A stretch of 64,000 nt of DNA from a virus. Its lineage: Duplodnaviria > Heunggongvirae > Uroviricota > Caudoviricetes. The DNA lies in the IMG/VR virus record IMGVR_UViG_3300029849_000005, positions 19,937-83,936 of that record. One strand, given 5' to 3'. Both the position numbers and the translations under genes were made by a program. The notes under the pieces were generated by a model that was given only the letters and a program-made list of their open reading frames with translations, did no database searches and was not told the origin of the DNA. This document shows, piece by piece, positions 19,657 to 52,302 of the stretch (its first letter is position 1; every line of letters starts with the position of its first letter).

Positions 19657-20499
19657 TTATAAAGTATAGCCTTTAGCATCACATACTAATTTAATTTGGT
19701 TCTTGCGAGTTTCCCACTGAGATATATGGAACTTCACTTCATCTTCCAAAGAATACAAGATTCTATTTCTAAGAACCTTTAATTGGTCAGTAGTTAGTTC
19801 TGTATACTTCTTACTCTTCAAATTAACCATAGAACGAAGCTGTGAATAGCTAAGTCCTTTAGGAGTAACATAAAGAGGCATTGTGGGCTTCAGACCTAGT
19901 CTTTCCTTCGCCACTTCAATCTTATCTCTTATCTGACCTGTCTTAGGGTCTTTCTCCACTAAGTCCTTGCTCTCTTGAGCAGTGAACCATAGACCTTGCT
20001 TGAGAATAAATGTAAGAGTAATGTGTTGTTTGTTGAACTTTCCCAGTCTGTCCAAACAACCTTCGCGTACTGTCTCTGTTGGAATGTCTCCAAACTCTTT
20101 AGGACAGCCGCACATAGTTCCTTCGATTGGATACTCTTTCGGGTCTATACCGTCCTTATTAATATCCAAGAAAGAGACTAAAGCCTCTAGGAACTTAAAC
20201 CTTGGCATATGCTGCTCCTGTTCTAACCAGCGCAAGAACAATTCTGCGTTACAACGCTGACGCTGGTCTTTAATAATGTCCAATAGAACATAACGACCAG
20301 GATAGTCCTTGTTAGTATTATAGAGCATAGAATCACAATGTGCATAGAAATTACGAAGTTCTTCTTCAGTACAATCAACCAAGCGTTTCTCCTCTTGTAC
20401 TAAAGCTCCATTTACTTCTTGCTTACGACCCTTCCAAATGAAAGAGTTGATGTCATTATTCTTTCTATCGATAGCTGATGCCAATTTCTCTCTGAACAT
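19657..20499 (-). CDS. hypothetical protein
   Basis: 280-aa ORF. Confidence 0.45.
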   Translation of the reverse strand: MFREKLASAIDRKNNDINSFIWKGRKQEVNGALVQEEKRLVDCTEEELRNFYAHCDSMLYNTNKDYPGRYVLLDIIKDQRQRCNAELFLRWLEQEQHMPRFKFLEALVSFLDINKDGIDPKEYPIEGTMCGCPKEFGDIPTETVREGCLDRLGKFNKQHITLTFILKQGLWFTAQESKDLVEKDPKTGQIRDKIEVAKERLGLKPTMPLYVTPKGLSYSQLRSMVNLKSKKYTELTTDQLKVLRNRILYSLEDEVKFHISQWETRKNQIKLVCDAKGYTL

Positions 20500-28156: not shown

Positions 28157-29095
28157 TTATAGCATTAAATTGTTAATACGTTTATATTCTTCAAACACTT
28201 TGTCCTCTGATTCTTCTCCCCACATACTGTGAATGAGAATACCATAAGCACAAGGCTGGTACACAATAGGGTCTACTGCCTTCTTAGTGATTGTAACCTC
28301 TGGATTGTTTAATTGACTAGGAGGGCAAGCTACAAATAGCTCATTTCTACCTATCTTAACAGCATCAAAGGAAACTATGTTAGGGTAGCTAAAAGCCTTT
28401 ACATCAGCAGGAAGGCCGGGATTCTTGTTAATTATACTAGACAGCCTGAGTGTGCCTTCTATATCAGGGCCAATAACTATGTGATTGTGTGATTCTATGT
28501 ATTTCTTCAGATTGTTCAACATAGTTTCACCGTCACTGTATCCGTAGTTAATACCTGTAACATAATAATACGCCCCATTAGCATACTCCAACCCTAAATC
28601 AGAGAACATTGGTCCTTCACCATTAAGTTTACGCTTAACTTCTAAGATTTCTCTAATATTACGGTCAGGAATCACTCCAGTGTACTGTTTTAGTAGACCT
28701 TTGACAAGTTTATACTTCTTACAAACATCATCAAATTGTTTAGAACCAACTAGAAGAGTACTCTCTCCGAATACCTCTCTTGCACGCTTTACGAAACTAA
28801 ACAAGTTCTTAGCGCGCATGGCATCCAGAGCTATCTGATTATATTCCGATATTTTAGCTTGCAATAACCTAGCATTCTTTGAGCTGCCCAGTCCAGCATC
28901 AACCAACGTGTTGTATTCTCTTACTAATGTATCTCTATTAGGAATATCAACTGATGTCTTGGAAACAGAACGTAGATATTCCTCCATACATAAAGCAAGA
29001 GCCATAGCTATGCTGGACTGAATAGTCATCACCGGCACGTCAACCACTTCTGGAGTTATAACTTCAGAATCATTGCGTTTTAGAAATCTAAACAT
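28157..29095 (-). CDS. paralogous family protein P1 (unknown function)
   Basis: Shares the C-terminal block DP(I/F)V(Y/F)...G(I/V)(L/M/V)I.S.WG.E..D..F and N-terminal GLG..KN with the 31112..31978 and 36718..37569 proteins. Confidence 0.55.
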   Translation of the reverse strand: MFRFLKRNDSEVITPEVVDVPVMTIQSSIAMALALCMEEYLRSVSKTSVDIPNRDTLVREYNTLVDAGLGSSKNARLLQAKISEYNQIALDAMRAKNLFSFVKRAREVFGESTLLVGSKQFDDVCKKYKLVKGLLKQYTGVIPDRNIREILEVKRKLNGEGPMFSDLGLEYANGAYYYVTGINYGYSDGETMLNNLKKYIESHNHIVIGPDIEGTLRLSSIINKNPGLPADVKAFSYPNIVSFDAVKIGRNELFVACPPSQLNNPEVTITKKAVDPIVYQPCAYGILIHSMWGEESEDKVFEEYKRINNLML

Positions 29096-31107
29096 CAGAA
29101 ATTGACTTTTAAAGTTCTACTAAATGTTCCGTCCACTTTAACAATAACGGAATTACGCATAGTAGATGAGAATCCTAACCCACTCAATTGATGTTCTTGG
29201 TAAGGAGTCTTCATCTTATCAGCTAGAATCTCAAATACCTTACGGTGAGGAGTTAGCTCACTGTTAAGATATTCGTTAAAGAATCCACGAACAGGCTCCG
29301 GATTCTTGCAATCATCCAACATAAAGAAGTAATGTTTATTGCCAATACCCTGCTCATCCCAATAATTGGGAGACAGCATCATCACGTTCACCTTATGGAA
29401 CTTGTTAGTATCAATATTCCATAGGCTTACTGACAAATTGCTAGTACTGGGTATTAGCTCTCTTATTTGGATGTCTTTAGATTTACTGTAAGTAATCTCG
29501 GCAACCATGACATTCTCTTTATGTTTAACGGGTTTGTCATAGACAAATTGTCGGACTTCTCCATTGTGTTCTATTTCCAATGTAAATCCTGTATCAACAG
29601 ATTCTCTACAATGAAAGTTATTAACATACACAACATACTTACCTTCAAGCATCTTGCGTTCGTTAACCCATATAATGTTCTCAACGGGTTTGCGAGTTTT
29701 GCCATATCCGGCATTTTCATCCACGTCTAGCTTACCACCACTTCTGCCAATTCTGTTGGAGTAATAAATTTCAAGATTATTAGGTTCAACGACATGCAAA
29801 TCCAAGTCATCATAGTTAGACCATGCCAACGAACATCTTAAGAAACCTTCAGTCTGACCACCAGCAGCTCTTACTTTCTCTTTAATAGAATCAGCTACCC
29901 CTCCATTATATGTCCAAGCAAAGTTGTTCGGCCATTTAAACAGATTCTTAGCATCCTTGTTAACAGGAGCTGTAAGAGTTACTAAGTTATTGGACAATCT
30001 ACTTTCCATTAACACTTCTATGTTAGTGGCAGTGGGTACCACATTAGCAATGAAATCATCAATGCTAATTTCAGTTAACTTGTCAAACTTCTTAGGATTA
30101 ACTTTAGTGTCTGCGGCCAGTTCTTCGAATATATTTCCAGCCATTACCTTCTTGGCATCACGATTAGCAAATATAACATTGTTGACTGTTATATCCTCTA
30201 AGGCAGCATGTCTACGAGGTAGAGAATCCATAAGACCTAGTTCCTGCACTTTCTTCTGTGCTTCCTCAATCATTCTTTTAGTAACAATTGACTTAGGTCT
30301 TTGATAGTTCTCTGGAGCCATGATACGTTCGTATGCAGTCACACAATCGTCCAGTTCAAGTCCTGATGATATATTTACCAACAATGTACCAATTGCCGTA
30401 TTACGAATGCGTGCACATCCTACACGATTGAAGTTTGCCCAACACCAGTTGTCTTTCTCTTCATCAGGTAATGAATCATAGTGTCTTTTATGACCCAGGA
30501 ATACACTTAAGTCATTTTTAAACTGTTCTCCTCTATATAAAGCATTCTGACCTATTAAGTCCAGAACTATTTCTATAGAATCGATAGTTAATTCCTCCAG
30601 TGCACGTTTGAACACTTCCTTAGTTGTGCGTAAAGTCCCCATTACAGCAGATACGGATTCAGTTCCTGTATACACCAATTGATTTGGCATATGATAGTAA
30701 AGATGATTCCAGGTAATTACTTTAGGACCTTGCAAACTGTCAATATAGGCATTGTTTCTATCAATTCCTAGTTCATAATCACGAGTGATAAAAACATCTA
30801 CAACTGGTTTTGATTTCACTAATGCATCGAGATTTCTAGCTACAGTAGCATAAGGTTCATCCAACTGTAGGTTCTCCCACATGGTTACTACTTTATTGTC
30901 TTTAATGGCGACAACTCTACCATAATGTCTGATATAATGTTTACAATTGTTGCAATTATGAGACTGTCTCTCTTCCTCCGGAAAGGAATTAAGATAACAA
31001 TCCCATAATGCGTCCTTGTCTACATTAGTCAGAAAGAGCATGTCTGCACCAGCGGCTAGTTGATTAAACTGCGCATGGACTGCTCTTTTAAACTTGACAA
31101 ATTCCAT
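29095..31107 (-). CDS. large hypothetical protein (670 aa)
   Basis: Long uninterrupted ORF between paralogs P2 and P1. N-terminal CNNCKHY. No recognisable catalytic motif. Confidence 0.55.
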   Translation of the reverse strand: MEFVKFKRAVHAQFNQLAAGADMLFLTNVDKDALWDCYLNSFPEEERQSHNCNNCKHYIRHYGRVVAIKDNKVVTMWENLQLDEPYATVARNLDALVKSKPVVDVFITRDYELGIDRNNAYIDSLQGPKVITWNHLYYHMPNQLVYTGTESVSAVMGTLRTTKEVFKRALEELTIDSIEIVLDLIGQNALYRGEQFKNDLSVFLGHKRHYDSLPDEEKDNWCWANFNRVGCARIRNTAIGTLLVNISSGLELDDCVTAYERIMAPENYQRPKSIVTKRMIEEAQKKVQELGLMDSLPRRHAALEDITVNNVIFANRDAKKVMAGNIFEELAADTKVNPKKFDKLTEISIDDFIANVVPTATNIEVLMESRLSNNLVTLTAPVNKDAKNLFKWPNNFAWTYNGGVADSIKEKVRAAGGQTEGFLRCSLAWSNYDDLDLHVVEPNNLEIYYSNRIGRSGGKLDVDENAGYGKTRKPVENIIWVNERKMLEGKYVVYVNNFHCRESVDTGFTLEIEHNGEVRQFVYDKPVKHKENVMVAEITYSKSKDIQIRELIPSTSNLSVSLWNIDTNKFHKVNVMMLSPNYWDEQGIGNKHYFFMLDDCKNPEPVRGFFNEYLNSELTPHRKVFEILADKMKTPYQEHQLSGLGFSSTMRNSVIVKVDGTFSRTLKVNF

Positions 31108-40523: not shown

Positions 40524-40543
40524 AAAAGGAGTCCGAAGACTCC
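40524..40543 (-). terminator. GGAGTC-TTCG-GACTCC hairpin plus U-run between the PurA-like gene and tRNA-Gln
   Basis: Perfect 6-bp stem with a UUCG tetraloop, followed by TTTT on the minus strand. Overlaps the TAG stop by 1 nt. Confidence 0.5.
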
Positions 40544-41610
40544 TAAACTAACTTATCGAATATCATGGGTTGTATTGACATCCATAAATTCGCTAGCATT
40601 TCTTGCTCTGCGTCAGATGCTTCATCCCAATGTGATACGTACAATTTCTCCGTTCGTTCATTCCTATAAGGAACTTTAAATGAACGGTTAATGCGTACAC
40701 TGTGTGCGAATAGGTCTTTGTCGAAATCAATAGCCCTAAGCGTCTTCTGGAAATCGTTGAACTTATTATTAGGGTCATCGACATCCCTAACAGACATTCC
40801 AGAAGGAAATGGGCCGTTACCATGCCTTGTTATATAAGGACGAGTTACATAACAAGTTTGGATTTCTTTACGTATGCCTGCTTTCCGCAACAGCTCGTAA
40901 GCGTTTTGTGAAGTTGTATTAGACGGAGTGCAATAAGGCATTATGCCGAATCTTTGGTCAAGCAATATTCCCTGTGAACCTTCAAACACTAGGTTGTCAT
41001 AGTTTAACAAGCAATCTTCATTAACCGTACCTGTATGTAAGAAATAAGCATGTGCTAACCTACACCAGTTGTCTAGGTCTATCGAGGGATATTTACTAGA
41101 CATGTTGTAATAGTTATCCACTATGGCATTTAATTTCTCACGTAGTATGTAAGGATTCATACAATCTACAACTGTTAAGCTGTATCCTGCCTTAACTCGG
41201 TCCAAACAAGCTTTAAACCCTGTACCTACAGTACCATGTCGTAAGTTCTCTTCGTTATTAACTTGGGAATAGACATCGAAGGGAATTACAACTTGGCAGT
41301 GAGGGTGATACTGAACAATGGGACGAACTCCCATTTTAGCTAAGTCTGCACCCTCTAACATAGAGGTAATTGGGTCTACAGTACAGTATTCGGACCAATA
41401 CGTCGGCACTCCAAGTAAGGTTCCGCTGCCAAAGTTACTAAAGGTGTGCATCATGTCTCCATGCTTTACAGTATGTCCTACTTGATGTCCACCACTAAAC
41501 CTGACTACTAATACAGACTCTCGCTTACCTATGTACTTGTTACATAAGTTGTGAACTGTCTGTCCCTTACCTTCGTCTCCAAAGAATGTTCCTAATACAA
41601 TACTAATCAT
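40543..41610 (-). CDS. adenylosuccinate synthetase (PurA) family protein, short form lacking the GTP-base-recognition region (PurZ-like candidate)
   Basis: PurA motifs: VLGTFFGDEGKGQ (P-loop), RFSGGHQVGHTV, GTVGTGFKA, FEGSQGILLD...YCTPSNTT, TRHGNGPFP. Only 355 aa. No TKLD/guanine-binding segment. Confidence 0.8.
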   Translation of the reverse strand: MISIVLGTFFGDEGKGQTVHNLCNKYIGKRESVLVVRFSGGHQVGHTVKHGDMMHTFSNFGSGTLLGVPTYWSEYCTVDPITSMLEGADLAKMGVRPIVQYHPHCQVVIPFDVYSQVNNEENLRHGTVGTGFKACLDRVKAGYSLTVVDCMNPYILREKLNAIVDNYYNMSSKYPSIDLDNWCRLAHAYFLHTGTVNEDCLLNYDNLVFEGSQGILLDQRFGIMPYCTPSNTTSQNAYELLRKAGIRKEIQTCYVTRPYITRHGNGPFPSGMSVRDVDDPNNKFNDFQKTLRAIDFDKDLFAHSVRINRSFKVPYRNERTEKLYVSHWDEASDAEQEMLANLWMSIQPMIFDKLV

Positions 41611-45173: not shown

Positions 45174-45225
45174 AATTCTAATAATTAGGTTAATAATGAT
45201 TTTCGCAAACTCTTATTAGCCAGCG

Positions 45226-45313
45226 CGGAGAGTGCTGGATTCGAACCAGCGGAACCCTTTTGAGGTTCGGTCCCTTAGCAGGGGACTGGTTTAAGCCACT
45301 CACCCAACTCTCC
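45226..45313 (-). tRNA. tRNA-Ser (anticodon GCT), type II
   Basis: Acceptor GGAGAGT/ACTCTCC. Anticodon stem GTCCC/GGGAC with loop CTGCTAA. Long variable arm. T arm GCTGG-TTCGAAT-CCAGC. Confidence 0.75.
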
Positions 45314-45400: not shown

Positions 45401-47362
45401 TTACTTTACAGGAGGAAAATTATCACCTTTAGCTGGTGATTCTTCCGGCTTCTTGCCAGTGATTATTTGCTTAAGCGAATCTGCAATAGGCAAATTACGG
45501 GCAATCTCCAAGCTAGGAGCAAGATTCTTAGCCATATTAGCCATGAACTGCCCAGCAGTATTGGAGTCACCATACACAGTAACATTACCAAGCTGGATAT
45601 GTTCAAACACCTTAGCGTTGGCTTCAGCAACTTCTTTCCACCTGTCGGTCATTGCATATTGAACGATTGCTTCAGGATGCATACCTGATTTAATCATATG
45701 TTCAACTGCAAGAGCCGGAGCCATTTCCATTGCCTGTTTCTGTTCAGCTTCTGCCATTAAAGATGCTTTCTTACCTTCAGCTTCGGCAAGAAGTTTCTTC
45801 TTAGTACCTTCAGCTTCTGCTTCCAGTTGCATCTTAGTAGCATTTGCTTTAGCTTCTGCTGCTTTCAAGATTTTAGCTGCTTCCGCTTCTGCTTCAAGAA
45901 TGGCTACACTCTTAACAGCTTCTGCTTCAATCTTAGCTTTCTCTTTGGCCTTCTCGGCAGGTATAATCACTTCGGCTTTAAGCTTAGCTTCTTCAGCTTT
46001 AGCTTTAGCTTCATTAACTTCTACCTGACGTTCCTGCTCTGTTTTAGCAACTGCCATTTGAGCTTCAACTTTGGAAGTACCAGCTACTCTTTCAGCTTCA
46101 GCTTTAGCTTTCTCTGCTTCTCCCTTAGCTTTGGAAACTTCAATAGTAGCTTTCTGTTCAGCTACTCCTGCTGCTTTCTCTGCTTCAGCTGCCTTTTGAC
46201 GGGCTTCTGATTCATACTGTGCAGTTTTAGCTTCTTTCTCCTGCTGTGCTTTAACAGTTTCAGCTTCTTGGTTTTGTGCTGCTACTGCCATACGAACTTC
46301 CTTCTCTGCTTCTGCTTCTGCCTTAGCGGCTTCAGCTTTGGCAGTAAATTCTGCTTCTTTAGCAGTTGCATAAGCTTGCTGCTCTGCAATCTTGGCAGCT
46401 CTCAATGCTTCTTGCTCGGCAACTTTGGAAGCTTCTTCAGTTTGGGCTGTAGCCACACCAATTTCACGTTCCTTTCTTTGCTCTGCAACAGCAATTTGTT
46501 GCTCCTTATGCTGCTCGGCCAATTGAGTTTCTTTCTCTTTAGTGGTCTTAGCAATAGCAACTTCTTTCTCCCTGTTAGTTTCAGCCACTATAGTTTCTTG
46601 CTCCTTAGTAGCTGCTGCAATTGCAATCTCCTTCTCTCTCGTAGTTTGAGCTATCTGGATTGCTCCTTTCTTCTCTTCTTCTGCGATATCAGCTTGTGAT
46701 TGCGCTCTTGCTTTAGTCTCTTCTTTCTTACCAAGATTATCAATATATTGAGCAGCATCTTGAATGTCACTGATATTGATATTCATCAGATAAAGACCAA
46801 GTTTGTTCAATTCTGTATTGATATTGTCTCTAGCTTGAGCTAGGAACTTGTCTCTGTCAGAGTTAAGCTCTTCAATAGTCATCGAAGCAATAACAAGCCT
46901 CATCTGACCATAAACAATATCTGAAATCAAACTTTCTTTAACGTCATCATCAGCACCTAGTAAGCGATTAGCAGCATTCTGCATAATCAGCGGTTCTTGG
47001 CTAATAGCAACAGTTACAGTGGTAGGGATAGTTACACGAATATTTTGAGCTGACAAAGCATTCTTCAATACAAGATTCAATTGAATCGGTTGCATTGACA
47101 TTACTTCATAACCCTGTATAATCGGCCATACAAAAGCTGCACCACCATGATAAACCTTGGCAGTTTTAATTTCAACTTCTCTGTCAACCAGATTACCTTT
47201 AGCGTCGCGTTCGCTAACTTTCTCTTTGTGAGAGCCTGTTTTACCATAAACTACCAACAATTCGTCAGATTTACATTTACGGTAGCGGGATAGAATCCCA
47301 ATGATAGTGATGATTGCAACTAGTACAACTACACCAACGATAATTAATGATGTCATTTCCAT
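45401..47362 (-). CDS. flotillin-like SPFH/band-7 protein
   Basis: N-terminal TM, SPFH-domain region, long Ala/Glu-rich coiled-coil (EA repeats) and a flotillin-type C-terminal segment. 653 aa. Confidence 0.8.
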   Translation of the reverse strand: MEMTSLIIVGVVVLVAIITIIGILSRYRKCKSDELLVVYGKTGSHKEKVSERDAKGNLVDREVEIKTAKVYHGGAAFVWPIIQGYEVMSMQPIQLNLVLKNALSAQNIRVTIPTTVTVAISQEPLIMQNAANRLLGADDDVKESLISDIVYGQMRLVIASMTIEELNSDRDKFLAQARDNINTELNKLGLYLMNINISDIQDAAQYIDNLGKKEETKARAQSQADIAEEEKKGAIQIAQTTREKEIAIAAATKEQETIVAETNREKEVAIAKTTKEKETQLAEQHKEQQIAVAEQRKEREIGVATAQTEEASKVAEQEALRAAKIAEQQAYATAKEAEFTAKAEAAKAEAEAEKEVRMAVAAQNQEAETVKAQQEKEAKTAQYESEARQKAAEAEKAAGVAEQKATIEVSKAKGEAEKAKAEAERVAGTSKVEAQMAVAKTEQERQVEVNEAKAKAEEAKLKAEVIIPAEKAKEKAKIEAEAVKSVAILEAEAEAAKILKAAEAKANATKMQLEAEAEGTKKKLLAEAEGKKASLMAEAEQKQAMEMAPALAVEHMIKSGMHPEAIVQYAMTDRWKEVAEANAKVFEHIQLGNVTVYGDSNTAGQFMANMAKNLAPSLEIARNLPIADSLKQIITGKKPEESPAKGDNFPPVK

Positions 47363-47375
47363 CTTGAAATTGGTA

Positions 47376-47897
47376 TTAATCTATGTATAATTTATTGTCT
47401 TCGTATTTACGAATCGTTACTGGCTCATTGACAGGATATATCTTCTTATTAAGAGATACAACTTCTACTTCTCTCAATGCTCCACTTATGTTCACGGATG
47501 CCAAATGGCGCCCTTCACCTAAATGTACATAGATAGTAGCAGTTCTGCCAACTAAGTTAGTCTTCGGTTCGTCTTTAGGAAGGTTCTGCAATTTCATACA
47601 GAACTTATATAAATGATACAGCATAAATACAAATACAAGACCTATAAAGAATCCTATTAACCAATCAATCCAGGTTACTTCATAACCTAATAATTGCTTA
47701 ATAGATGTCCATCCTCCGAATCCCATGAAGAAATGGATAAATCCTTTAAAGGATACAACATCACTGACATCAAAGTCAGCATCACCATCAAAGTCTACGT
47801 CGACATCGAACTCCCCAGCAACCCATGATATTATGAATTGTAGGATAAATATACCATAGGCGATGCCTCCTAAGATATAATACAAGTTATTGTCCAT
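47376..47897 (-). CDS. NfeD-like membrane protein (partner of SPFH proteins)
   Basis: Two or three N-terminal TM helices and a C-terminal soluble beta-rich segment (VGRTATIYVHLGEGRHLASVNISGALREVEVV). Sits immediately upstream of the flotillin-like gene, as in bacterial nfeD-floT operons. Confidence 0.6.
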   Translation of the reverse strand: MDNNLYYILGGIAYGIFILQFIISWVAGEFDVDVDFDGDADFDVSDVVSFKGFIHFFMGFGGWTSIKQLLGYEVTWIDWLIGFFIGLVFVFMLYHLYKFCMKLQNLPKDEPKTNLVGRTATIYVHLGEGRHLASVNISGALREVEVVSLNKKIYPVNEPVTIRKYEDNKLYID

Positions 47898-47926
47898 CTT
47901 ACTAATAATTATTTAATCTATTAAAG

Positions 47927-47998
47927 TGGGGCGAGGAGGAATCGAACCTCCAACGCCAGGCTCTTCAGACCTGCGCTCTACCATTGAGCTACCGCCCC
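47927..47998 (-). tRNA. tRNA-Phe (anticodon GAA)
   Basis: Acceptor GGGGCGG/TCGCCCC. D arm GCTC-AATGGTA-GAGC. Anticodon loop CTGAAGA. T arm GGAGG-TTCGATT-CCTCC. Confidence 0.75.
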
Positions 47999-48297
47999 AT
48001 ACTGCCTACACGTACGTCTTCACTGGATTTTATGCTTTATTACGCCAGTTGCTTTGGACAGTCTAAATCCTTCGGTGCTGTACAGCCATACATATATTAG
48101 TGAGGCCTCCACTTTAATTAAGCTGCCATCGCACCTACTCCCATTACTTCGTCACGCAACGTACCCTACATTCCACTTTAGGATTTTCACCTAACCACAT
48201 CCTCGGCATTCCGTTTCAAGATAAAATATAACTCTGCTGAATAAGTCAAACCAAACAGGAAGATTTATGATACGTTTATACCTAAACAGCAGAATTG

Positions 48298-48371
48298 GGT
48301 GACATACGAGACTTGAACTCGTAACCCTTAGAACCACAACCTAATGCTCTGCCAATTGAGCTAATGCCACC
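48298..48371 (-). tRNA. tRNA-His (anticodon GTG)
   Basis: G-1 plus C73 arrangement. Anticodon stem TTAGG/TCTAA with loop TTGTGGT. T arm ACGAG-TTCAAGT-CTCGT. Confidence 0.75.
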
Positions 48372-48379
48372 ATATTGAG

Positions 48380-48958
48380 TTATTGCAACTCTAATCCTTC
48401 TTTTAGTGCCCTAGTATATGCCATTCTAGCAAAGAATAGTTCAGCCACAGCCATAACTACTGGCTCTGCTAACTCTTCGGCTTCTTCGGCTCTTTCTTCT
48501 TTGGGCTTAGATTCTACATATTCTAGTAATTCCAACACAGCTCTATTAGCTTCGACCAGGTGACTATAAGCAATGCGAACTTGTTTATAATTCTTATATC
48601 TTTCTCGATATGGTCTTATTGCATTCCATGAATATGAAGCAGCTACTATTATTGATATGGCACATAGTACCATAAATCCGAAGGGTTCTCCTTTAGACCA
48701 TGCTGAATAGATTTGACACAATACAGCACCCAAACATAGATTCTGTCCTATAAAGAGGGACAATAAGAACCAATAAGCTGAAAAGGCTTTCTTTGCTTCA
48801 TCAAGTAATGATGCTGACTCCTTTAGCTTCTCTTGTTCAGCTTTTAATGAGTCAATTGACACTTCCATAGCTTCTCCTTCGTCTGAATCTTTAAGGCGTT
48901 CATATTCCTCTTCACTAATCTTGGTTATTTTCAAATCTTCTAATTCTTCTCGATTCAT
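48380..48958 (-). CDS. membrane protein with coiled-coil N-terminus
   Basis: 192 aa, two central TM helices. Adjacent to the NfeD/flotillin pair. Confidence 0.45.
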   Translation of the reverse strand: MNREELEDLKITKISEEEYERLKDSDEGEAMEVSIDSLKAEQEKLKESASLLDEAKKAFSAYWFLLSLFIGQNLCLGAVLCQIYSAWSKGEPFGFMVLCAISIIVAASYSWNAIRPYRERYKNYKQVRIAYSHLVEANRAVLELLEYVESKPKEERAEEAEELAEPVVMAVAELFFARMAYTRALKEGLELQ

Positions 48959-52227: not shown

Positions 52228-52230
52228 AAG

Positions 52231-52302
52231 TGCCCCATGTTGGACTCGAACCAACGCCATACAAGTTTAGAATTTGCTCTTCTACCACTGAAGTAATGGG
52301 GC
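52231..52302 (-). tRNA. candidate amber-suppressor tRNA (anticodon CTA, reads UAG)
   Basis: Exact 73-nt canonical layout: acceptor GCCCCAT/ATGGGGC, D arm CTTC-AGTGGTA-GAAG, anticodon loop TTCTAAA (U33, A37), T arm GTTGG-TTCGAGT-CCAAC. The anticodon stem has only 3 Watson-Crick pairs plus G·U. Confidence 0.55.

Follow-up and report, generated by a model that had tools for sequence, protein, structure and literature searches.

A flotillin gene and an nfeD-like gene side by side in a large gut phage, apparently of the crAss-like kind

A stretch of 64,000 nucleotides (nt) from a virus of the Caudoviricetes (positions 19,937 to 83,936 of IMG/VR record IMGVR_UViG_3300029849_000005), referred to below as the window, carries two adjacent genes that are homologous to a chromosomal operon of Bacteroidota. 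The upstream gene (47376-47897) encodes a 173-amino-acid (aa) NfeD-like protein, a short NfeD2-type partner of flotillin, and the downstream gene (45401-47362) encodes a 653-aa flotillin-like protein of the SPFH2, or p-flotillin, type. Both lie on the minus strand, as do all genes of the region, and the coordinates given here are those of the window and of that strand unless stated otherwise. Purifying selection acts on both genes. It is moderately probable that the pair is an operon of the Bacteroidota-chromosomal kind, captured from a host and carried by a large crAss-like gut phage in its tRNA-rich early or replication region, and that it serves in membrane homeostasis. A preliminary description of the region, made from the sequence alone, had placed three open reading frames (ORFs) here, the third encoding a 192-aa protein discussed below, and its coordinates and lengths were exact.

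The two proteins

The 653-aa protein begins with a hydrophobic stretch at residues 5-25 (47288-47350), a predicted transmembrane (TM) anchor modelled as a helix over residues 3-29. It is followed by RYRKCK, and R26, Y27 and C30 are invariant in the flotillin alignment. By the positive-inside rule, a TM helix followed by these residues would place the SPFH domain in the cytoplasm. The SPFH or Band 7 domain, residues 67-231 by Pfam (46670-47164), scores 88 bits with PF01145, for which the cut-off is 23.6 (E 1e-24), and the protein belongs to the SPFH superfamily. Within that superfamily the domain is closer to the flotillins than to stomatin, prohibitin or HflK/C. A phmmer search of PDB sequences returned matches to flotillin-1/2 only, and when the AlphaFold2 (AF2) model of the monomer was submitted to Foldseek the top five matches were all flotillin, above prohibitin, stomatin and HflK/C. 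Against SPFH domains the model gave TMt values of 0.76 (1win) and 0.72 (3bk6). Its predicted local distance difference test score (pLDDT) is about 80-89 in the SPFH core, residues 90-200.

Over its whole length the protein can be aligned with bacterial flotillins. Its conserved C-terminal region, residues 547-635 (45458-45724), aligns with the C-termini of two bacterial flotillins, and P563, V596, F606 and P616 are invariant there. PF15975 (Flot) gave no match to the 653-aa protein at E <= 0.1, whereas the Bacteroides finegoldii homologue, 43-46% identical, passes with 30.6 bits against a cut-off of 27. The sole NCBIfam match was to FloT (NF058507; E 1e-35), at 123.6 bits against an equivalog cut-off of 700, so the protein is classed as a member of the flotillin family and not as a FloT equivalog. 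Bacteroidota homologues (146-192 bits) and Escherichia coli YqiK (86 bits) likewise fall under this cut-off. The preliminary description had called the protein flotillin-like, with a TM segment, an SPFH domain, a long coiled coil of EA repeats and a flotillin C-terminal region; the Pfam match, the alignment and the model bear out a TM helix, the SPFH domain, long helices rich in Ala, Glu and Lys and a C-terminal region that is conserved. It had also named what would undo the assignment, a generic coiled-coil or tape-measure-like protein. In its wider form this alternative holds that a coiled-coil, tail or tape-measure-like protein stands beside an unrelated membrane protein, or that the locus is mis-assembled bacterial DNA. 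The phage proteins do miss PF15975 and PF01957, and the repeat region described next is of low complexity, but the SPFH match is significant and best to flotillins, and the C-terminal domain of the neighbouring protein is matched best by NfeD. With the viral contigs considered below, the alternative is refuted in both its forms and can be given hardly any credence.

Between the SPFH domain and the C-terminal region lies a helical region of about 30 hendecads, or 11-residue repeats, at residues 226-546 (45725-46687). Typical units are IAQTTREKEIA, IAAATKEQETI and VAETNREKEVA. The region consists of 25% Ala, 20% Glu and 15% Lys, is strongly self-similar at lags of 11, 22 and 33, and falls within the modelled helices 206-295, 302-426 and 432-546. 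An anchor joined to a long Ala/Glu-rich helical region is the architecture of flotillins. A heptad or 3.67-residue hydrophobic periodicity was also considered for the repeats and was rejected, as it did not rise above that of shuffled sequences. Natural near-identical variants of 642, 631 and 620 aa are shorter than the 653-aa form by 11, 22 and 33 residues, which suggests gain and loss of repeat units with preservation of the helical register; some of the variants found on a single contig could be assembly collapses. The repeat region is some 100-150 residues longer than in the bacterial homologues, which are proteins of about 500-550 aa, and its roughly 30 hendecads make it about half as long again as that of the host protein. 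Directly before the SPFH domain there is an insertion of about 20 residues (about residues 44-66), present in the aligned phage sequences except that of the phage crAssE-Sib and absent from crAssE-Sib and two bacterial homologues. Expanded coils are a known variation among p-flotillins (PMC2636767).

The membrane part of the 173-aa protein, residues 5-103 (47589-47885), has three hydrophobic helices (5-26, 50-69 and 76-103) whose hydrophobic blocks are conserved in two alignments. It is followed by a C-terminal domain of the oligonucleotide/oligosaccharide-binding (OB) fold, residues 112-173 (47379-47564), as in NfeD-like proteins. The AF2 model, built from 17 homologues (pLDDT 77 overall, 85-90 in the C-terminal domain), has three helices and a beta domain of five strands, in keeping with the N-terminal helices and C-terminal beta domain that were proposed at the outset for an NfeD-like protein. 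The five strands form an OB-fold beta-barrel as in solved NfeD domains; the best match of the OB domain is to NfeD, and YbbJ (8z5g) aligns over 132 residues of the model. At 173 aa the protein is too small for a ClpP domain, and it gave no protease match. Short NfeD forms with such an architecture have been described (PMC2636767). The OB domain is preceded by KLQNLPKDEPK and by the positive-inside rule would face the cytoplasm.

Neither the 173-aa protein nor any of its 21 closest relatives was matched in scans of Pfam (including PF01957 and DUF1449), NCBIfam and PHROGs. A profile search of 1.84 billion representatives recovered 1443 members of the family, and a profile of 48 diverse members matched the soluble domain of YuaF across the entire OB domain (E 0.0015). 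A profile of close relatives had given a single TM match against PDB sequences, which was spurious; the real match came after distant members were added. PF01957 itself is matched by three of the 48 distant members (best E 4.4e-6). In BFVD the best match, 43% identical, carries the UniProt name 'NfeD-like C-terminal domain-containing protein', and in GenBank the exact 173-aa sequence is named 'protein of unknown function (DUF1449)', where DUF1449 denotes the YqiJ family. The latter label was not reproduced: there was no Pfam match, and in an hhalign comparison the family profile matched E. coli YqiJ with a probability of 1.45%. Of the domain models that the preliminary description had put forward as a check, PF01145 was matched while PF15975 and PF01957 were not matched directly by the proteins of the window, and what supports the latter two assignments is therefore the evidence of structures, profiles and homologues.

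Between helices 1 and 2 of the NfeD-like protein there is an acidic loop, residues 29-45 (47763-47813), of sequence EFDVDVDFDGDADFDVS, with a DxDxDG-type motif. The loop, DVDVDFDGDADFD, and its motif are found family-wide, and an acidic loop is also present in the bacterial members encoded on Bacteroidota chromosomes. D33, D37, G38 and D41 are invariant in one alignment, and D35 and D37 in another that takes in bacterial homologues as well. The pLDDT is low in this loop, which is possibly a divalent-cation site. We know of no description of a conserved acidic loop for NfeD proteins.

Distribution, selection and origin

The NfeD-like ORF stands directly upstream of the flotillin gene in all 80 IMG/VR loci examined. 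Each of these encodes a flotillin relative (45-100% identical to the protein of the window), and most are on contigs of roughly 75-190 kb. The survey of related phage genomes suggested in the preliminary description has thereby found the pair adjacent throughout, and the same pair occurs in crAssE-Sib and in a lineage of 57% identity. In a scan of bacteria, taking one genome per species, the nfeD-like gene was upstream of flotillin in 76 of 80 loci, nearly all from Bacteroidota; two of the four exceptions did not have enough upstream sequence. In the window the genes are separated by a 13-nt spacer (47363-47375), and the spacing is equally tight in related loci. That the NfeD-like gene lies immediately upstream of the flotillin gene, as it does in bacterial operons, had been noticed from the start and holds in both surveys. 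A scan of the sequence found no terminator-like site between the two genes, and this, with the short spacer, supports the suggestion that they are co-transcribed. The scan, for promoters as well as terminators, gave a result no better than that for shuffled sequence.

Codons were compared among 21 nucleotide variants, all different, from one strain-level population; the counts are not independent events. The flotillin gene has 437 synonymous and 11 non-synonymous codon differences and the nfeD-like gene 45 and 7, whereas the corresponding numbers in neighbouring genes are 83 and 35 (192 aa), 173 and 44 (297 aa) and 16 and 6 (95 aa). The contrast is large, and both genes of the pair are functional and under strong purifying selection. 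Chance can be dismissed: hundreds of genomes keep the pair, and within the strain population there are far more synonymous than non-synonymous changes.

The nearest cellular flotillins are those of Bacteroides, Parabacteroides, Phocaeicola and Prevotella/Leyella (43-46% identity), followed by those of other Bacteroidota (30-38%), and the NfeD-like protein is 39% identical to its Bacteroides counterpart. In B. finegoldii JCM 13345 and B. salyersiae the operon has the same gene order and tight spacing, and it is chromosomal, in the company of truA, EamA, DUF5715 and PhoH genes. In the more distant members of the small-protein family the gene is likewise chromosomal and bacterial and stands just before a Band_7 gene of about 510 aa, with asd, ligA, rpoN and ribF among the neighbours. 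The Bacteroidota and phage operons have in common the acidic DxDxD loop, the three helices with an OB domain and a conserved C-terminal region of the flotillin. They differ in that the phage flotillin exceeds that of Bacteroides by about 100 residues, mostly through extra hendecads, and has in addition the insertion before the SPFH domain; the phage pair is set in a tRNA array and the Bacteroidota operon among housekeeping genes. In a neighbour-joining tree, constructed without support values, the phage clades are interleaved with Bacteroidales. Taken with the sequence identities, capture of the operon from Bacteroidales hosts is most likely.

Mis-assembly of bacterial DNA into a viral record is at odds with the position of the pair between phage tRNAs, with its presence in 80 of 80 loci on viral contigs, the longest of about 190 kb, and with the occurrence of the exact flotillin sequence in 7259 blocks of an assembly collection. 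A DNA-level search of a phage collection with the locus gave no match. Two contigs of 140 kb and 153 kb (L096 and L130) that carry the phage-type pair, at 55-56% identity, are found in metagenome-assembled genomes labelled Gastranaerophilales and Clostridium sp.; these contigs are probably mis-binned and of phage origin. The chromosomal NfeD-like partners of Bacteroidota flotillins (for example 1967-2464 of the B. finegoldii locus L121 and 286-861 of locus L010) have no NfeD or DUF1449 assignment in Pfam or NCBIfam, and the partner family of the Bacteroidota looks like a gap in current domain libraries.

The closest GenBank genome with the pair is that of crAssE-Sib (OR575929), an epsilon crAss-like phage (PMC11054128), in which the genes stand in the same order and are annotated 'transmembrane protein' and 'flotillin family protein'. 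The flotillins are 55% identical and the partners 28-31%, but the crAssE-Sib flotillin has 566 aa and is without the pre-SPFH insertion, and there are no tRNAs nearby. The window itself would fit the Zeta crAss-like group, since the contigs of its relatives are about 160-190 kb and there are many tRNAs, including one of the amber-suppressor type, and a block rich in nucleotide-metabolism genes; published Zeta crAss-like features served as the comparison (PMC7886860; PMC12386605). Flotillin, SPFH and NfeD are not mentioned in these two papers or in that on crAssE-Sib.

Operons of the SPFH2/NfeD2 kind are known from Bacillus subtilis (yuaF-yuaG, which are NfeD2 and FloT) and E. coli (yqiJ-yqiK) (Hinderhofer et al., 2009; PMC2636767). 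Compared with these, the phage flotillin falls well under the FloT equivalog cut-off, and its partner has no significant profile match to YqiJ. The best solved relatives of the 653-aa protein, in sequence and in fold, are the flotillin-1/2 cages (9bq2 and 9l3g), at about 20% identity. The phage repeat region is much longer than theirs. Eukaryotic flotillins have no NfeD partner (PMC11222466). Among phages, SPFH ORFs have been listed since 2006 in the T4-like phages 44RR, Aeh1 and RB43 (PMC1524935), and such genes were still called unexplained in 2026 (PMC13239085). These ORFs, phrog_200 and a 'flotillin family protein' of Vibrio phage KIT04 (LC487410) are SPFH membrane proteins of large lytic phages too. 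The KIT04 flotillin is 31% identical to that of the window, but the gene upstream of it encodes an 82-aa protein with TM helices only; as this has no OB domain, KIT04 lends no support to a second NfeD-flotillin operon among phages.

Genomic surroundings of the pair

In the order of transcription the locus consists of the 192-aa ORF (start 48958, end 48380), tRNA-His (48297-48370), about 300 nt, tRNA-Phe (47926-47998), the 173-aa ORF, the spacer, the 653-aa ORF and tRNA-Ser (45225-45313). The 300 nt between tRNA-His and tRNA-Phe contain no convincing ORF and no Rfam match. An ARAGORN call of a plus-strand tRNA-Arg at 45210-45286 overlaps the tRNA-Ser and is probably an antisense artefact, because Rfam backs only the minus-strand tRNA. 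There are 29 tRNA genes in the window, nearly all on the minus strand, in an array (26237-59707) that is interspersed with small ORFs and encloses the flotillin pair. One of them, at 52230-52302, has a CTA anticodon (labelled 'Pyl' by ARAGORN; Rfam tRNA, 62.7 bits) and is a candidate amber-suppressor tRNA. Suppressors of this kind have been reported in crAss-like phages that recode TAG (PMC7886860).

The 192-aa protein has an N-terminal acidic coil and two hydrophobic helices. It had been described at the outset as a third membrane protein following after tRNA-His. The tRNA does lie between this gene and the pair, but the gene is upstream in transcription and does not come after them. As a third component of the module it was rejected. 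The 57%-identity lineage has no homologue in the corresponding place, and the protein was found in only 25 of the 80 viral loci and only weakly in a lineage of 69% identity. None of its relatives in the databases falls below 80% identity, and they have many small insertions and deletions (indels) and no domains; numerous variants at 90-98% identity range in length from 180 to 193 aa, again with indels, and the share of non-synonymous differences is higher in this gene than in its neighbours. It had no match in Pfam or PADLOC, and with SLATT_1 it scored 17.7 bits (E 0.0027) against a cut-off of 41. It is a lineage-specific ORFan outside the flotillin/NfeD module.

The window also encodes enzymes of nucleotide metabolism and replication, among them NrdD, a helicase and an exonuclease. 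Since the flotillin gene adjoins genes of this kind, and flotillins scaffold membrane machineries (PMC5718613; PMC7360373), the pair might be a scaffold for a membrane process of the phage itself, either controlling holin action and the timing of lysis or anchoring replication or assembly to the membrane. This is doubtful, as neither the window nor its relatives have lysis or assembly genes next to the pair, and the neighbours of the pair vary between lineages while the pair stays constant.

Two other genes of the window may be recorded here. A 355-aa protein (40543-41610) matches phrog_1211 and resembles adenylosuccinate synthetase of the PurZ type (E 2e-46); for identical copies of its gene on other contigs the Pfam family Adenylsucc_synt is recorded, and 2-aminoadenine (Z-base) DNA thus becomes a possibility for this phage. 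A 670-aa protein (29095-31107) belongs to phrog_1735 (E 1.7e-260), a family with no assigned function; its whole length can be aligned, at 47% identity, with proteins from phages of 141-162 kb that infect Bacillus, Serratia and Salmonella. Across such different phage groups this degree of conservation is unusually high.

Possible roles in infection

A mechanism may be modelled on the flotillin cages (9bq2 and 9l3g), on the QmcA-YbbJ complex (8z5g) and on FloA and NfeD, which cooperate in Staphylococcus aureus (PMC11222466). With its N-terminal helix as the anchor and its SPFH domain on the cytoplasmic side, the phage flotillin would oligomerise by means of the hendecad-repeat helices and the C-terminal region, and the resulting cage would close off a patch of the inner membrane. 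The NfeD-like protein would lie within this patch, held by its three helices, and its OB domain would bind and stabilise the flotillin oligomer. Expressed alongside the tRNAs and replication genes, the pair could supplement or replace the flotillin-NfeD system of the host, and membrane fluidity and the membrane proteins of respiration, transport and envelope synthesis would be kept working until lysis. The pair would then be a host-derived auxiliary module for membrane homeostasis. Such a maintenance role is favoured because the pair is a conserved and strongly constrained copy of a host housekeeping operon.

Several points weigh against this reading. The role of the pair in infection is deduced purely by analogy with the cellular systems. 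The proteins of the window miss PF01957 and PF15975 and fall short of the FloT cut-off (123.6 vs. 700 bits), and the model of the flotillin monomer is of low confidence (pLDDT 58.8 overall). The tree, lacking support values, leaves the direction and number of transfers not established. Finally, the longer repeat region and the insertion of about 20 residues before the SPFH domain are not explained by plain replacement of a host function, and as features of the phage proteins that the compared bacterial homologues lack they leave room for a modified one. The phage pair could form an enlarged, phage-specific cage on the host inner membrane with a function of its own: it might sequester membrane proteins of the host or effectors of its defences, keep out rival phages or provide the infection cycle with a membrane-bound compartment. 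This we regard as rather improbable. If true, it would be the first viral SPFH 'organelle', and would be found among the most abundant human-gut phages.

The membrane-maintenance role has also to be weighed against two forms of conflict. In the first the cage would alter or occupy the inner membrane, blocking the entry of DNA from a second phage or sequestering receptors or channels, and would thus serve superinfection exclusion or competition between phages. The module is located in the membrane and is probably expressed early, within the tRNA and replication block. It is kept in all 80 viral loci of an abundant group of gut phages, in which co-infection is plausible, and a role related to entry has been the subject of speculation for a phage SPFH lipoprotein in a 2026 paper (PMC13239085). 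Exclusion is nonetheless unlikely: the pair is closely homologous to a housekeeping operon of bacterial chromosomes, it is matched by no defence-type model, and its very strong purifying selection is unlike that of fast-evolving exclusion or arms-race genes. A defence system as such was dropped, there being no PADLOC matches for any of five proteins.

In the second form the phage flotillin-NfeD pair would take over host microdomains in counter-defence. It would co-assemble with the host flotillin system, together with any bound protease or clients, and poison or re-programme it, or the membrane would be shielded from pore-forming effectors of abortive infection. An identity of 43-46% to the host flotillin could permit mixed oligomers, and the longer repeats and pre-SPFH insertion, confined to phage proteins among those compared, suggest an altered function. 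HflK/C, which are SPFH proteins, modulate FtsH, and FtsH controls CII of phage lambda. Against this, PADLOC gave no match and no recognisable anti-defence gene is linked to the pair, and conservation of the NfeD partner points to a self-sufficient complex rather than a poison subunit. Counter-defence is accordingly held to be improbable, and maintenance of the host membrane is the role that we prefer.

NfeD-flotillin operons (PMC2636767) and phage SPFH genes were already known, and the database labels "flotillin", "DUF1449" and "NfeD-like" had given partial names to these or related proteins. The new results are the identification of the 173-aa protein as an NfeD-type partner, the presence of the pair in every viral locus examined, its derivation from a Bacteroidales operon, where capture is the most likely course, the expansion of the coil in hendecad units, and the strong constraint. 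The surprise is limited, in that the gene identities were present in labels, phage SPFH genes have been listed since 2006 and no new mechanism is revealed. As an annotation the finding is sound and moderately interesting, but the system is not of a new kind.

Operons of flotillin and NfeD occur widely among bacteria, and what they do in physiology is just beginning to be worked out. The partner family of the Bacteroidota, with its 1443 cluster representatives, is mostly missed by current Pfam and NCBIfam models. In the phage the pair provides a natural minimal two-gene system for probing the function of flotillin and NfeD. The presence of a complete host-derived copy of flotillin-NfeD in very abundant, large crAss-like gut phages suggests that the maintenance or reshaping of membrane microdomains matters for the infection of Bacteroidales.

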